A stretch of DNA of 64,000 nt from Octopus vulgaris (Eukaryota). Below, one piece after another: positions 41,658-59,500 of the stretch. How positions within the stretch are numbered: the stretch's first letter is position 1; each line of letters starts with the position of its first letter. Position numbers and translations under genes: made by a program. The notes beneath the pieces are model-generated. The model ran no database searches. It worked only from the letters and a program-made list of their open reading frames with translations, and was not told the origin of the DNA. Location of the stretch: contig OX597819.1 of the NCBI GenBank assembly GCA_951406725.2, positions 82,274,001 to 82,338,000 on the forward strand, given 5' to 3'.

Positions 41658-41990
41658 CAGGTATATCTGTGTGATTCAGGAGATCATGGTCTCAAGTTCA
41701 ATCCCACTGCCTGTCATCTTAGGCAAGTGTCTTCTATGATAGTCCCAGCTTAACCAAAGGCTTGCAAATGGATTTGGTAACTGAAACTGAATGTGTCCTA
41801 ATACCTGATCGTGTGTGCATGTGTATGTGTGTGTATGCATGGGCAGGGGTGGGTATGCATGGGTGTGGTGCATGCACATGTTGTCATTTTCTTTCTTGTC
41901 TTAACATCATGTAGTAATTATAAGTGAATGTCATAATGTCATATCTGCTATGTCTTTCATTTCCAATCTTCCAAGAAAACATGTCCAATC
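41658..41990 (+). mobile_element. SINE family 1-related diverged copy
   Basis: AGTTCAATCCCACTG..CTTAGGCAAGTGTCTTCTAT..GGATTTGGTAA. Confidence 0.65.
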
Positions 41991-42440: not shown

Positions 42441-43235
42441 ATCATCATCATCGTTTAATGTCCATTTTCCACACTAGCACGGGTTGGACGGTTCGACCGG
42501 GGTCTGGGGAACCAGGGGCTGCACCAGGCTCCACTCTGATCTGGCAATGTTTCTACAGCTGGATGCCCTTCCTAACGCCAACCACTCCGAGAGTGTAGTG
42601 GGTGCTTTTTACGTGCCACCAGCACTGGTGCCAGGGGAGTCTGGCATCGGCCACAATCGGTTGGTGCTTTTAACGTTCCACCAGCATGGAAGCCAGTCGA
42701 GGCGGCGCTGGCATCGGCCACGTTCGGATGGTGTTTTTATGTGCCACCGGCACAGGTATCACAACTACTATTTCCATTGATATTTATTTCGATGTTCATG
42801 TACTTGACTCAATAGGTCTCCTCAAGCACAGCGGGATGTTCTGGAATCCAAAGTACTTTGAATGGGCAAGGGCTATGCGGAACTGGTGTAGGAAGCAGCC
42901 CGGGTCTTTGCAGTCACAGCATATCTCCAGAGATCTCAGTCCTCCACCATTGCCTCTGTGAGGCCCAACGCTCTGAGGTCATGCTTGACTACCTCATCCC
43001 ATGTCTTCCTAGGTCTACCTCTTCCCCTGATACCTTCAACTGTTTGGGAGCGGCACTTCTTCACACATCTCTCCTCATCCATCCGCAGTACATGACCATA
43101 CCATCACAAGCGTCGCTCTTGCACACCACATCTGATGCTTCTTATGTCCAGCATTTCTCTCAGGGTGCTTACCCTCTGTCGTACGCACACACTGACATTA
43201 CACATCCAGCAGATCATGCTAGCTTCATTTCTTTC
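42441..43235 (-). mobile_element. RTE LINE 3' fragment (ORF end, 3'UTR, tail)
   Basis: ERNEASMICWMCNVSV..IRCGVQERRL..WYGHV; (CAT)n tail at 42441. Confidence 0.92.
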
Positions 43236-44046
43236 ACATTTAACGTATAGAATTACGTCTATGATCATCAGCAGAACTGATTCTGAACACATCATAAATA
43301 AACGACCAACTTTACCTGGCGAAGACGAATAGATATCTATTCACTCCGGCGAAGCACATGGAAATGTTTATAAATCATATATTCGGTAAATGGCGGGCTT
43401 TTTCAAACTGCATGTCGGGTAAGAAAAGTATTTCGGAATAAATTTAACAATTAAGGATAACCTCTTAATAAGGAATCTTAACAAGAAATTATCAGGTAGT
43501 TAGCGTGAAAAACCTCATAAGAGAAAAAATTCGAAAATAATTTTTTTCTTTTGAACATATTAATTATATTTTATAGAGGGCATTATTACACATAAATGCC
43601 TCACACTAAGAGGGATAAAGCCCGCCATTTACCGAATATATGATTTATAAACATTTCCATGTGCTTCGCCGGAGTGAATAGATATCTATTCGTCTTCGCC
43701 AGGTAAAGTTGGTCGTTTATTTATGATGTGCTCAGAATCAGTTCTGCTGATGATCATAGACGTAATTCTATACGTTAAATGTGAAATCACGGGTGATACA
43801 GAACTAAATTCATTTTTTTTTAATGTCTTGCTTTGAAAAACTGCATTAGGTATGATTAGTGTAATTTTGGTAGTAATGACATTTGTCCCTCTTAGTGTGA
43901 GGCATTTATGTGTAATAATGCCCTCTATAAAATATAATTAATATGTTCAAAAGAAAAAAATTATTTTTTCTCTTATGATGTTTTTCACGCTAACTACCTG
44001 ATAATTTCTTGTTAAGATTCCTTATTAAGAGGTTATCCTTAATTGT

Positions 44047-44051
<5 letters not shown>
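43232..44051. mobile_element. Retrozyme-like non-coding HHR element with interleaved inverted repeats A B A' x B'
   Basis: A 43232-43401 is the reverse complement of A' 43617-43786; B 43442-43615 is the reverse complement of B' 43886-44051; HHR at 43740-43805; ends in (TA)n. Confidence 0.8.
43740..43805 (+). ncRNA. Type I hammerhead ribozyme motif
   Basis: Stem I AGTTCTG/CAGAACT; core CTGATGA; stem II CAT..ACGTA/TACGT..ATG with a U-U closing pair; GAAA; stem III ATCAC-GG-GTGAT; predicted cleavage after ATA (A43798). Confidence 0.75.
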
Positions 44052-44089
<38 letters not shown>

Positions 44090-44093
44090 GTAT

Positions 44094-44460
44094 GAGCGGC
44101 TGTGTGGTAAGTAGCTTGCTAACCAACCACATGATTCCGGATTCAGTCCCACTGCGTGGCACCTTGGGCAAGTGTCTTCTGCTATAGCCCCGGGCTGACC
44201 AATGCCTTGTGAGTGGATTTGGTAGACGGAAACTGAAAGAAGCCTGTCGTATATATGTATATATATATGTATGTGTGTGTGTGTGTTTGTGTGTCTGTGT
44301 TTGTCTCCCTAGCATTGCTTGACAACCGATGCTGGTGTGTTTACGTCTCCGTCACTTAGCGGTTACTGGGCTTACAAAGAATAAGTCCCGGGGTCGATTT
44401 GCTCGACTAAAGGCGGTGCTCCAGCATGGCCGCAGTCAAATGACTGAAACAAGTAAAAAG
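44094..44460 (+). mobile_element. SINE family 1, young copy with a small internal deletion
   Basis: CpG-retaining match to 15060-15470. Confidence 0.92.
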
Positions 44461-46257
44461 GCAGATTTTATCTGCCTCCCTTTACCAGTTATAGAAATCT
44501 ACAATATAGGATTTCTTCAATTACAATTTACCTAGCATTTTTAAGAGTAGAATGCATCGAGTCATGCCAGGTCCAGTTTTTAAAATTTAAACTCCAATTA
44601 AGCAAAATTTACAGAAAACTCACATTCTGGTGTGTATGTCAAATGCTTTTCTTAATGTGGTTTACACCACACGCACGCAGTGTGCAACGAATAAAGTGAA
44701 AGTAAATCACTGTGTGTGTGTTGACAAGTAGACAATAGAATGCGATAGCGATGTAATATTTGTTTCTGTCTATCACGCTGATAGATACATGAGTAAAATG
44801 TATGGCAAGCTAAGAGATAAGAGTGAGTGAAAATGTTCTTGGAAGAGAGTAAATAGCGACAGAGTGATTTGAGGAAGACTAAACTGAAAGTATTTCTATA
44901 AAACGGATCACTCATGCTATCAACATAATTTCTCCCACTTTCTCTTTGCAAGTGTACCTTAAACCACTACTCAAAAAATAAAAAAACGCAGCAAACAGAA
45001 ACAAATAAATACATAACGATTTACTCCTCACACAATTTCTTCAATTAGAGTTTACCTAAGATTTTTCAAAGTACTCCATTCGGTCATGCCATAACAAATT
45101 TCTTTCAATTTCACCCCCAATTAAGACAAAATTCAAGAAAACTCAATATTTTAACATTTCACTCCGAAAGCATTGATGTACATGTGTGCGTGCGTGAGTG
45201 TGTGTGTGTGTGTGTTTGATGGGTTGTGCGACACAGAAAGTGTGGTGTGTAAGTGAAGTGCTTTTGTTAGTGTGTGTAAAGAGACAGAGAGAGTGAAAGA
45301 CAGAAATAACTGAACTTTTTTTATTCACTTTTTGTAGTGAGTGACTGAGAGAGAAAAGAGAGAGAGAGGTTATGTATGTATATATGTATGTATGGCTTCA
45401 GTGACACACACACACACAAAAACACATACCTACGTACACCTAAAGCACGCACACACACACAAGCGGAGCGTGAACTTCAAAATTTTGGTAGTATTAATTT
45501 GCGAGCGTACTTCTAAGTGCGCGTAATTGAAAGTTTTCACTATGATATCATCACGTGCGAAAAAATTCGAAGGGTTTTGAACAATTGAGATACAGATGTC
45601 ACGCCTGTATTGAAACCATTGCTAAGCTGCCGTAATTGCTTAATTAAGACTTTGTTTAAATTGAAAGGGGCAAATATGTGACGAGGTTGAAAAAAAATAC
45701 CCCAGAAAAAAAATGTACTGCTGGTATTTATATAATTCACTACTATTTTGCTACAATGTCATGAAAAAGAAAAAATTTAGGTATGTACAACATATATTAT
45801 ATATTTTTTCTATTCATTCAACGAAAATAAAAAAAATCGAATTCGCCACCCCCTTTTCCCCGTTCGCGTTTGTGTAAAAAAAATTATTATTTAAGTTTTA
45901 AAAATTATTTACTTTGTTCAAAAAATATTAATATTAATTAATTTTCAAGAATTATTTAATTTTATTCTGTAAAATAGTAATTAATTCATTTATCTGTAAA
46001 TCCGCGAGGTTGTTACTCAGGCACCTCGTAATAGCAGCCAGATTTTTATATTCTAAATAATTTGCAATTTCAAAAAATATATTAATTTTGCGTTATTTAA
46101 TTTGATAAATTCTACGGAATAATTTTGCGCGTTATATACGTTCGCGTTTCTGTAAAAAAAAGTAATTATTTAAGGGCGATCGAGTATCGAGTACCTACGT
46201 CTGGCTCGCATGCGCGAATCCGCGTGTGCGCAACCGGGACCACTCTGCGATACAAGT
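44459..46257. mobile_element. Unclassified CpG-rich element, possibly Helitron/Helentron-like
   Basis: Hairpin AGGCAGAT-TTT-ATCTGCCT at the start; internal degenerate duplications (44560-44622 vs 45084-45145; 45863-45896 vs 46141-46173); GC-rich end ..GCGATACAAGT. Confidence 0.35.
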
Positions 46258-50699: not shown

Positions 50700-51560
50700 A
50701 CTCCCACTTCTGTCTTAATTTCATAATATCATTCTCTACTCACACCACATCTACTGTCTCCTAATTCCTCCAGTGCAGCCACATCTCTAACTATAAGCCT
50801 ACCTTCAAGACTCAGTCTCAGTGTATTATCAGCCACATCACAAGATATGGTTACTCAGAATCAGCAATCTACATGCATCTCTGCAGCAGCAATGTCACTT
50901 ATACTTCTGTCCTGGTATTTTTTATCCTCCCACTATCAACTGTCATCCCTTCCTCACATTGCTTACCATCCTACCATATTGCCTTTTCAGTGTTCCATCC
51001 TGCAGTACTTCCGTCTCTTCCAATCCTGCTCCACTTCTTCCCACCTCTTACCTAAACAACCCATTATCTCCTTCAGAAATGCCTCAACCTACATAACTTG
51101 CAAGTTCATAGTTCTTCCCTGTTTTCCACACTCAACCCAAATCCTATCTCCATCACTGCCACTGTACCTATCTCTTCATCATACTATAATTTCCACAGCA
51201 GGACCTAACAACCCATCCCTCCACCTCACTAAATTGTTCCCCAACAACCCCTCCTTCCACTTCACTAAATAGTTCTTATCAGCTGTATAAAACATCAATT
51301 ATATTGCCAGATACAGGTAGGTGATACTGGTCAGTGACTACGAGATCAATTTAGGCAGCATCTTTTAGGCTACCGCTGAAACAGTGCCAGATCATCTGAG
51401 GTTCACCAGCTTCAACTCTCTAGACCACACTTCTCTGCACCTCAACTTCAGTAGTTTTGTCTTACATAATGGTTTCTAATTATCTCAATTACAATGTGAA
51501 CAACAACTACTCTTCTATCTTGGTACTGCACATCCACATTGTTTTGAATAATTGACACCT
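50700..51560 (+). mobile_element. Decayed Neptune-type Penelope-like element, 3' part
   Basis: Remnants ..YKPT.., VGDTGQ*LRDQFRQHL (GIY-YIG YxGxT..R..H), FNSLDH, EQQLLFYLGTAHPH. Confidence 0.6.
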
Positions 51561-56532: not shown

Positions 56533-59500
56533 CAAAATAGAGTGAAAAAAACTACAGAACACTTAGGTTATATGGTTAAAGAATATATTTAAATCATTAT
56601 GTTAGGAAAATGTTATAAAATTTTGTGCAAAGTGACATTGTTTTGGGAGAAAAAACCAGTTTCGTATTTTCTTCTGAAATTTCTTTATCAATATTGTCAT
56701 CTCTTTGCTATGAAGTGAAGTATGAGAGTTCTAGAAAGGGGAAGGTAATTAGGGATTTTTTCCGTATAAGGGAAATAATAAAAAATGTTGGGAATGACTA
56801 GGTTTTATTAATTTAACATGATTTGGTTTAGAAAGAATAGAATGTTAGAAGTGGTTAAGTTTTGCTTTATATTTTTTTTCAAAGAGGTAAGTTTCTTTAT
56901 TTAAAATTGCTAGAAATGGTTAAGTTTTGGCTTATATTTTTCAATGAAGTAGGTTTCCTTATTTAATCTAACTTGTGTTGGTGTTCCAAAGGTACATTGA
57001 TAAAATGGAAAGATTACAAATATTGGTAGCAGTTGCTTTGTGCATTTTTCAATGTGTGCACTAAACAGAATCATTCTGTATTCTGGGAATGCACTTTGCT
57101 GTCAGTGCAGAGTGCATCTGCATCTGAGTGATAATTCCATGGACCCTATGTTAGTTTTAGTAGCAGCCCGAGCATCTTATAACTCTTATAAATCAGGTTT
57201 TCTGAGGCACAAGTAAAGTCAGATTTGATTTTGAATTTTTGTCCTTCTTTCAAAAAGGAATTCTGATCCTTCTAGAAGGCTTGGGCATGTTGCAAAATTT
57301 GGTTGACCCCATTTCTTCTCTTTTGTGTCCATTATTTTAGAAAATGATTTTACCTTTGTGAGGATCTTTTTTAGTGATTTCAGTTTGTGGCTTTTAATGA
57401 TCTTATGTTTGTGTGAAATTTCCTTTTTTCCAAAGAAAAAAATATAAATAACAAACAAAACTGAACAACACACAAATTTTAACCACTTAGTCAACATCAA
57501 CCCACCTCATTATCCTCTGTACACCATAAATATAAATCACCAACCCCCACTAACATTTTTTAACCACCCAAAACTAAACAGTGAACAAGCTGACAACAAA
57601 CACATTTATGAAATAAATTACACCAAATCTAATGATCACCTGTATACCAGGAACAACACACACCAACAACGTCCCAATACCAGGCATAACCATCCCATAA
57701 CAACACAAACCACCACATACCAGGCACTACTACCACATGACCCAAAATTACTGGTCCCCACTGAGCACATGAACAGCACAAAATAATACTAGGTCAAGAA
57801 ACACCCCACATACAAGAAATTCCAAGCAAAAATATACCACATACAGAAATGTTACACACATCACTAACCAAAACACCCACACACACATAACAATCTGAGG
57901 CAACAATACCACCATTCCCCTGGACCAATCCCATACAACCTCAGAAACAGCTCATGCAAACAAAACTACAACCAACATTTTTTAGCCCCCTGCAAAAAAT
58001 AATGAAAGGATCAGCTAAGAATTGAATTGGTTGAATTCATCCTACAAAACAACCACTTCATGTTTGATAATACGTTCTATCGACATAAAACCCATAATTG
58101 CCATGTGGGCACTAAGGCAACCCCGGTCATTGCAAACCTAACAATGGCCTATCTGGAAATAATAATATACCAGGAATCTTTATCTACCTTTGTAAACCCT
58201 TTTTCCTAATACATAAAAGAAAATTTAAAAAGATTCCTAGACAACTGTTTCATCCTCTGGAATGAAAACACAGACAAACTCCTGAAATTCAAAAGACTAT
58301 TAAACAGCATCAACCCAAACATACAATTCACAATGGAATACAACCAAAAGGAGCTCCCATTCTTGGATATGCTAATTAAAAAAATAAACCTAAAAATAGA
58401 AATAGACATATTCTACAAAACCACACATGCCAAACAATATCTATTATCTAATTCATGCCACCCAAGACACACGAAAACAAACATTTTCAACCTTGCAAGA
58501 AGGATATGCACAACATTGTCAGAAAAAATACCAGAAACTTTAGACTGCAAGGACTCAAAAACACCCTGATTGACAGACACTACCCAGTTCAACTCATAGA
58601 GGATGGACTCAGACATGCAACACAAATCAACATAGAAACTTAAGAAAAGTCCAAATTTTACACACATACAAGATCAGTAAAAACCACAAACAAATGAAAC
58701 CACTAAAACATACCCTCACAAAAGCAAAATTATTTTCTAAAATAATGGACACAAAAGTGAAGAAATGTGGTTGACCAAATTGTGCAACATTCCCAAACCT
58801 TCTAGAAGGATCAGAATTCCTTTTCAAAGAGGGACAAAAATTCAAAATCAAATCTGACTTTACTTGTGCCTCAGAAAACCTGATTTATGTTATAAGATGC
58901 TCGGGCTGCCACAATAACTACATGGGATCCATGGGATTATAGCTCAGATGCACTGGACCTACAGCAGAGTGCATTACCAGAATACAGAATGATTTTGTTT
59001 AGTGCACACATTGAGAAATTCACAAAACTGCTACCATAATTTGTAATCTTTCCATTTTATCAATGTGCCTTTGGAACACCAACACAAGTTAGATTAGATA
59101 AGGCAACCTACTTCATTGAAATATATATGCCAAAAACTTAACCATTTCTAGCAATTTTAAATAAGGAAACTTACCTCTTTGAAAATAATATAAAGCAAAA
59201 CTTAACCACTTCTAACATTCTATTCTTTCTAAACCAAATCATGTTAAATTCATAAAACCTAATCATTCCACACATTTTTGATTATCTGCCTTATACCGAA
59301 AAAATCCCTGATTACCTTCCCTTGTCTGGAACTTTCATACTTCACTTCATAGCGAAGAGATGACACAATATTGATAAAGAAATTCGAGAAATTTGAAAAG
59401 AAAATACGAAACTGGTTATTTCTCCAAAAACAATGTCACTTTGCACAAAATTTCATAACATTTTCCTAAAATAACAATTTAAATACATTCTTTGACCATA

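Follow-up and report, generated by a model that had tools for sequence, protein, structure and literature searches.

The window analysed here, 64,000 nt of Octopus vulgaris DNA, carries what we take, with a probability of about 0.65, to be a damaged copy of a noncoding hammerhead (HHR) retrozyme of about 481 nt, which lies in a (TA)n microsatellite and is likely to have been copied by a PLE from a probably circular RNA. An earlier note on this DNA had interpreted the locus as a non-autonomous retroelement copied by a (TA)n-targeting PLE, and this interpretation is supported by the analysis of the window together with that of the genome (2.8 Gb, 227 contigs). Judged by sequence criteria, the element is a non-LTR retrozyme: the units are arranged in tandem, each with one type I hammerhead, they are noncoding, and their GC content is below 50%.

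The window copy and its family

The inverted repeats, the hammerhead, a 16-nt palindrome and the (TA)n tract all lie where the earlier note had placed them. The features of the locus, with strand, are:

43617..44050, plus strand: direct arm, 0.9 unit, with its 3' end at start site A; full-length matches (87-92%) to many copies
43232..43619, minus strand: inverted arm (B'-y-A') with its 3' part missing; stops at the ribozyme-core GAAA, about 145 nt before site B
43740..43805, plus strand: predicted type I hammerhead; stem I 43740-43746/43799-43805, CTGATGA 43747-43753, GAAA 43783-43786, stem III 43786-43797, predicted cut after A43798
43402..43442, minus strand: y, 41 nt, the natural link from site A to the next unit
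43614..43619, no strand: inversion junction of the two 5' ends; 3-4 nt compatible with both arms
43676..43691, plus strand: hairpin, a perfect palindrome in the window copy only; within the 28-nt stretch hit by LINEs in other copies
43892..43993, plus strand: predicted long-range helix, TAGTGTG (43893-43899) with CACGCTA (43986-43992), enclosing start site B
44051..44093, no strand: (TA)n target microsatellite
42443..43236, minus strand: 5'-truncated LINE remnant, presumably RTE-type, neighbour of the left arm; five bases (43232-43236) common to both

Comparison of the window with itself gave three inverted repeat pairs, 43232-43404/43614-43786 (173 nt, 99% identity), 43534-43619/43882-43967 (99%) and 43438-43530/43963-44055 (98%). 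The two arms differ at 2 of 282 compared columns (0.7%) and by a single 8-nt indel, the 8 nt being found in the left arm only; they are thus almost identical, as had been claimed, and the copy is young within the family. The length of the unit in the window is 434 + 41 + 8 = 483 nt, as previously estimated, with the small correction that y measures 41 nt rather than 40. The direct arm terminates with TTGTTAAA immediately before (TA)n, as do most copies that end at A, and start site B is represented by CCCTCTATA at 43921-43929.

The left arm has no (TA)n end and adjoins the LINE remnant, which we assign to the RTE type on account of its (GAT)n tail and a peptide. The retrozyme arm matches from 43232 onwards and the 39 other copies of the remnant (96-98% identical) match up to 43236; this 5-nt overlap leads us to infer that a microhomology deletion removed the 3' end of the left arm, either during the RTE insertion or later. 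The window copy contains one complete hammerhead motif, and the designation as an 'active' non-LTR retrozyme would apply to the family, not to this copy.

The region is flanked by copies of a very abundant SINE at 44094-44460 and 41697-41779, the right-hand one of which begins immediately after the (TA)n target. To the right of this SINE, at 44511-45145, pieces of an old repeat are duplicated at a spacing of 523-524 nt, and many copies of them are present in public runs. Decayed PLE ORF fragments were detected by tblastn at 50883-51536 (+), 56919-57317 (-) and 58015-59132 (+), and a weak hammerhead-like match lies at 59393-59417.

As the earlier note had predicted, copies are numerous in the genome, both dispersed and in tandem, and their permuted 5' ends lie in (TA)n. 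When the right arm was used as the query, 1,534 candidates were obtained; the 40 that were scored yielded 120 matches, the full-length ones being 87-92% identical. Tandem arrays, located on many chromosomes, were found at 11 loci with at least two cut sites on one strand, at a spacing of 479-485 nt and with up to seven sites, so that the period of natural arrays includes the 483 nt deduced from the window. The order B-y-A recurs in other copies and in arrays and is therefore a natural junction, as had been proposed. It should be noted that A before B on one strand requires merely a tandem template; the circularity of the template would follow from the homogeneity of the arrays (see below). Genome-wide, the exact ribozyme motif of this family has 467 matches and a looser motif for the clan of sister families has 1,241, with 0 matches for the reversed-pattern control in either case. 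In the following, the predicted cut in L031:3873-4353, a natural unit of 481 nt, serves as the origin for unit positions.

The absence of a long ORF that had been noted was corroborated: the longest ATG ORF of the unit encodes 69 aa, the GC content of the unit being 33%, tblastn with PLE proteins found nothing inside retrozyme units, and the unit lacks the RT and GIY-YIG ORF of an autonomous PLE. The layout of arrays and insertions gives no LTR/PBS/PPT arrangement, and fixed 3' ends, variable 5' ends and the presence on many chromosomes indicate dispersal by retrotransposition. Contigs of runs presumed to be RNA cover a dimer in X8 in 28 of 30 bins, neighbouring repeats being covered at least as deeply, and the same contigs include exact pieces of 153 nt and 115 nt that span site A and the cut site.

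Sister retrozyme families (L093-L142) are 70-90% identical and have stem III, the long helix and the two ends in common; one of them has a period of 497 nt. Another observation concerns L129:4539-4638, where two hammerheads are just 99 nt apart with a TA tract between them: one retrozyme copy ended right after its ribozyme, and another copy follows. No account of a cephalopod retrozyme or of paired start sites in retrozymes was found in the literature searched; the family may already have an entry in Repbase or Dfam, and supplements of papers may contain cephalopod repeats.

The ribozyme motif, its predicted fold and a LINE hotspot

The hammerhead has the type I layout that the earlier note described, with the core CUGANGA...GAAA...UH and stems I, II and III, but the 2-nt loop proposed for stem III cannot form, and stem III of the window copy is therefore read as 4 bp plus CGGG; in most copies it is ATCA-CGG-TGAT. 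A type I scanner reported three matches in the window, the described hammerhead and two weak ones (0 matches in each of five base-shuffled windows). The hammerhead model search that had been proposed for the window, carried out as an Rfam scan, was without a hammerhead match at E<=1. In the window and in most copies, stem II has a U-U mismatch at its base, with A-U, G-U and G-C variants elsewhere. Of 83 copies, which come from 40 loci after three duplicate loci had been dropped, 82 match the core pattern; all four bases occur at N7, and stem I switches from G-C to A-U.

A structure of 39 pairs, consisting of the three ribozyme stems, the long helix and two hairpins, was tested with 24 sequences of the family and its sister families. 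In total, 93.8% of the cells pair, compared with 29-42% in slid controls, and 12 of the 39 pairs are altered on both sides (1 in 500 shuffles), a count that is inflated by the relatedness of the sequences. The ribozyme motif is, as far as these comparisons indicate, under selection across families. Independently of this structure, RNAalifold recovered the long helix and the hairpins and, of the ribozyme, part of stem I; it missed stems II and III. Circular folds of four natural units gave z values of -5.3 to -6.6, and the predicted pairing probabilities in these units were 0.89-0.94 for stem I, 0.02-0.37 for stem II and 0.00-0.06 for stem III; the low value for stem III arises because the core is predicted to pair with the stem II/III strand in an alternative helix, and the window copy behaves alike. 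Folding thus argues for a ribozyme that may be weak or assisted. Stem III is longer than in the dimer-requiring amphibian motifs of the available text of PMC7229834. In one sister family, stem III is fully palindromic (ATCACATGTGAT), which makes this family a better dimer candidate than that of the window. The 16-nt palindrome at 43676-43691, in turn, is perfect in the window copy as had been claimed, and it was rejected as a feature of the family: only 2 of 69 matched segments have it, both of them from the window copy, and the others form an imperfect hairpin.

The hairpin region overlaps with a place at which LINEs have landed. A 5.3-kb APE-RT LINE (L216:2457-7742) and a 1.7-kb ORF1-only relative (L215:3253-4949) lie inside units, in the same orientation, at unit positions 367-394 (equivalent to about 43677-43704 of the window), and they are flanked by duplications of 6-19 nt of the unit, which shows that they inserted into it. 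In total, seven LINE-type 3' ends adjoin this hotspot (including those at L332-L336) through at least three different junctions; with 25,398 such 3' ends placed at random, 0.07 junctions would be expected. A LINE that is specific for the retrozyme was rejected, since most copies of the LINE lie elsewhere, often in their own 5' ends; the hotspot was used by 4 of the 30 closest 3' ends. The sole match of an Rfam scan of 20 LINE flanks was one degraded U6 piece. The approximately 25,000 sites with the same 3' end as the LINE (L272-L301) represent mostly a short SINE-like repeat, which is often in tandem at a spacing of 184 nt and, beyond its tail, is followed by sequence similar to the retrozyme hotspot (TTCGTC..GCTACGT).

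Insertion footprints and possible mechanisms of copying

A tally of 77 insertions, 48 inverted and 29 direct, was compiled, from which duplicates, loci cut at fetching (L197-199) and LINE-interrupted loci were left out. (TA)n is present on both flanks of 47 of the 48 inverted and 25 of the 29 direct insertions. The 3' ends fall at two sites, A at about 263-276 nt after the predicted cut and B at about 132-135 nt, with a few at 113-117. One arm ends at A and the other at B in 46 of the 48 inverted insertions, and none has the same end twice. The loci that had been chosen with a query ending at A (n = 40) comprise 23 inverted insertions, 21 of them A/B, the two exceptions being the window copy, through its inverted arm, and L024 (A with position 240). 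Loci chosen with an internal query or a motif (n = 37) comprise 25 inverted insertions, all of them A/B; some of these loci were picked for motifs on both strands, which enriches inversions, not a given pairing. The direct copies of this second set end at B in nine cases and at A in three (one scored 241 via an alignment break). Among the four inverted loci that are interrupted by LINEs, A/B occurs at three and the combination of B with position 173 at the remaining one. Sister families have the same two ends, at about 135 and about 245, and therewith a tail of about 110 nt.

The 5' ends, by comparison, are scattered, and at 24 of 35 inversion junctions (one locus counted twice) there is an overlap of 0-6 nt. 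Five of the 29 direct copies start less than 20 nt from the cut site (p of about 0.006 versus a uniform spread), one of them exactly at it; the other four begin 13-19 nt upstream, which means that the cut site was read through. Arms are up to 3,573 nt long, and 40 of 94 are longer than one unit, namely 22 of the 48 that end at A and 18 of the 46 that end at B. L1-type twin priming was rejected as their origin, because the 5' ends of A arms are not clustered at site B. The A-B interval corresponds to a PLE tail of about 130 nt, three to four times the usual length. The inverted 5' arms, partial tandems, tail at one end and AT-rich target are those of PLE-type insertions, in agreement with the PLE-style inversion that had been suggested for the window.

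The two arms of an insertion resemble each other more than they resemble the rest of the family. In 31 inverted insertions with at least 40 common columns (two had fewer), sister arms differ by 1.3% on average, the median difference from other arms being 4.7%. The distance between sisters is below the median for other arms in all 31 cases, and in 19 of 31 no other arm is closer; rare states are common to both arms in 19. Hybrids with arms of different subfamilies were not seen among these 31. Similarly, 41 array units (one C5 array being counted from two overlapping loci) differ by 0.33% within arrays and by 2.1% between them, and some arrays have private variants in every unit. Some variants are common to non-adjacent units of one array, so that recombination after insertion does occur, and it could also homogenize arrays. 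Most simply, the homogeneity of arms and arrays is explained by a one-unit circle that is read round by two enzymes.

The genome offers potential helpers. Intact young PLE ORFs of 781 aa, with RT and GIY-YIG, are present, and autonomous PLEs also end in (TA)n at two sites, which are 40 nt apart in family F1 and about 30 nt apart in F2; three inverted autonomous copies (L078, L056 and L082) use one end of each. An autonomous PLE with homology to the unit was found neither among the four families F1-F4, in a GIY-YIG family search in which 150 of 6,136 candidates were scored, nor in the flanks of 20 hammerhead loci. A candidate fusion of a PLE with the unit, L116, was rejected as an insertion into the 3' region of an unrelated older PLE, of which 29 other copies do not continue into the unit, and two loci with long gaps between ribozymes held LINEs instead of PLE ORFs. 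F1 (L074-L081) is a young (TA)n-targeting PLE; another ORF, of up to 479 aa and without a Pfam match, lies ahead of its intact 781-aa RT-GIY-YIG ORF and overlaps with it. The end of F1 has a 40-nt tail and, as read by eye, a hammerhead-like motif with a U3-A8 core. F4 (L337-L356) is very abundant, with 59,791 first-look candidates; its copies terminate in (TA)n, and a minimal hammerhead-like motif lies about 110 nt upstream of the terminus.

The following course of events is consistent with these observations. A tandem locus would be transcribed, the ribozyme would cut after A17, probably slowly or assisted by a protein, and a host ligase might close the 481-nt circle. A PLE protein, probably as a dimer, would then bind the folded domain after the ribozyme, as suggested by Frangieh 2024 and the footprints, and would cut both strands in (TA)n. 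Copying would start from the two fixed sites evident in the genomic pattern, A about 265 nt and B about 135 nt after the cut, with different sites being used by the two DNA ends of a two-armed insertion. Both enzymes may travel along the same RNA, for up to 7.4 units, and the joining of the two cDNA ends, usually with an overlap of 0-6 nt, would generate back-to-back arms, whereas survival of a single arm would generate a direct array. In the window copy, the B end and its TA tract would have been lost later in the microhomology join with the RTE remnant. The strict version of this scheme, namely that one circle serves two PLE RTs at fixed sites 130 nt apart, held by the conserved fold, that each RT is primed by one end of a double-strand break in (TA)n and travels round this circle, and that the cDNAs are joined head-to-head, is put forward tentatively and is perhaps somewhat more doubtful than not.

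A rival that we regard as unlikely, yet deserving of serious consideration, retains the element and its PLE helper and replaces the circle by a linear, uncut template of several units, with circles as a by-product or absent and homogenization by later unequal exchange. It would accommodate the inactive predicted fold of the ribozyme, the mosaic variants inside arrays, an array of 7.5 units (L031) that begins exactly at the cut site, and the use of unprocessed RNA by PAc in vitro (PMC11167929). However, array-private variants that occur in all units, the inverted arm included, point to a bottleneck of one unit, the ribozyme is apparently under selection across families, and position-specific variants common to arrays are missing from the 41 units, albeit a small sample. 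That the whole family is the product of local rearrangement or misassembly is refuted by the 77 loci with fixed 3' and variable 5' ends, and we give hardly any credence to local rearrangement, DNA-level satellite amplification or misassembly in general: inverted repeats are indeed hard to assemble and no listed contig bridges the window junctions, but loci of the same architecture, 48 inverted and 29 direct, are spread over many chromosomes, and the arms are not identical.

Very little probability is likewise left for the two remaining rivals, which dispense with a retrozyme moved by a PLE. The copies might be the pLTRs, truncated at the 5' side, of an autonomous PLE that was not found in full-length form, as their footprints equal those of autonomous PLEs and pLTRs are related to retrozymes in Xenopus (bioRxiv 10.64898/2026.07.22.740005); against this, units follow each other head to tail with no ORF between ribozymes, and no examined copy runs into a related PLE ORF, the PLE at L116 being unrelated. 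Equally improbable is mobilization by an APE-type LINE, either the Tx1/L1-like element inside the unit or RTE. LINE 3' ends do adjoin the unit at seven places and the window copy adjoins RTE, yet the duplications around the LINEs mark them as insertions into the unit, which itself has no LINE 3' tail or any poly(A), and two internal start sites with 5' ends scattered away from site B differ from L1-type twin priming. The PLE-copied retrozyme with a probably circular template thus remains the preferred reading.

Relation to known systems

Elements of this kind are already known as non-LTR retrozymes (Cervera and de la Pena 2020, PMC7229834; Li et al. 2026, bioRxiv 10.64898/2026.07.22.740005). 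Like those of metazoans, the present family consists of noncoding, highly self-paired tandem units with type I hammerheads and a GC content of 33%, which occur as monomers to multimers and coexist with PLEs, and the U-U at the base of stem II is also found in axolotl HHR_Amex2 (PMC7229834). The unit of 481 nt is longer than the reported retrozyme circles of 170-400 nt and lies within the consensus lengths of 51-972 given by Li et al. (bioRxiv 10.64898/2026.07.22.740005). Strict (TA)n targeting, inverted arms and two fixed starts are, by contrast, not mentioned for metazoan non-LTR retrozymes in the available texts; the words 'microsatellite' and 'inverted' have 0 occurrences in that of PMC7229834. 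Cleavage and circles have been demonstrated for metazoan retrozymes, including circles in mussel (PMC7229834), whereas for this family both are predictions; eight of nine Xenopus retrozymes are reported to be without cleavage in vitro (bioRxiv 10.64898/2026.07.22.740005).

With endonuclease-positive PLEs (Penelope/Poseidon, Neptune, Naiad), as far as the sources consulted describe them, the family has in common partial tandems, an inverted arm that is truncated at its 5' end, a one-sided tail, targets that are AT-rich or (TA)n and a hammerhead upstream of internal start sites. It differs in having no ORF, no homology to the four PLE families examined, and a tail of about 130 instead of 30-40 nt. 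The published PLE tail is optional or often at one end only (PMC8557442; PMC3846280), compared with a one-sided tail in 46 of 48 inverted insertions here. The anole PLE protein PAc cuts and extends both strands at AT-rich DNA and starts at two internal sites, by which the tail is defined; it is a predicted dimer and can dispense with the ribozyme for insertion (PMC11167929). The non-autonomous Chlamys PLEs (MRC1) are also noncoding, multicopy head-to-tail and moved by PLEs (PMC8557442); the 3' end of MRC1-type elements, however, resembles the autonomous partner and they are described without canonical hammerheads, whereas no similarity to a partner was found here. Tx1 LINEs such as Tx1L in Tx1D and Tx1-Mar in Mariner-N4 (PMC4494074) resemble the LINE described above in that they insert repeatedly at one place in a mobile element; here, the LINE is a putative Tx1, the target is a retrozyme, and a minority of copies is involved (4 of the 30 closest 3' ends).

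In the available literature, the mover of animal retrozymes has been proposed only from co-occurrence and pLTR similarity (PMC7229834; bioRxiv 10.64898/2026.07.22.740005), and the origin of PLE tails and inversions is described as still undefined (PMC8557442). If the rule of two RTs on one circle were true, it would account at once for the PLE tail, the inversion and the tandem arrays, and a ribozyme circle without detectable homology to its helper would hijack a PLE by shape alone, while being itself a landing site for LINEs. A young family with many clean footprints leads to exact predictions: there should be two start sites, each used by one of the DNA ends, and each insertion should derive from a single template. 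Because intact PLE ORFs are present in the same genome, the in vitro PLE assay published for PAc (PMC11167929) is directly applicable. The family is a retrozyme of a known type with unusually clear mechanistic footprints.
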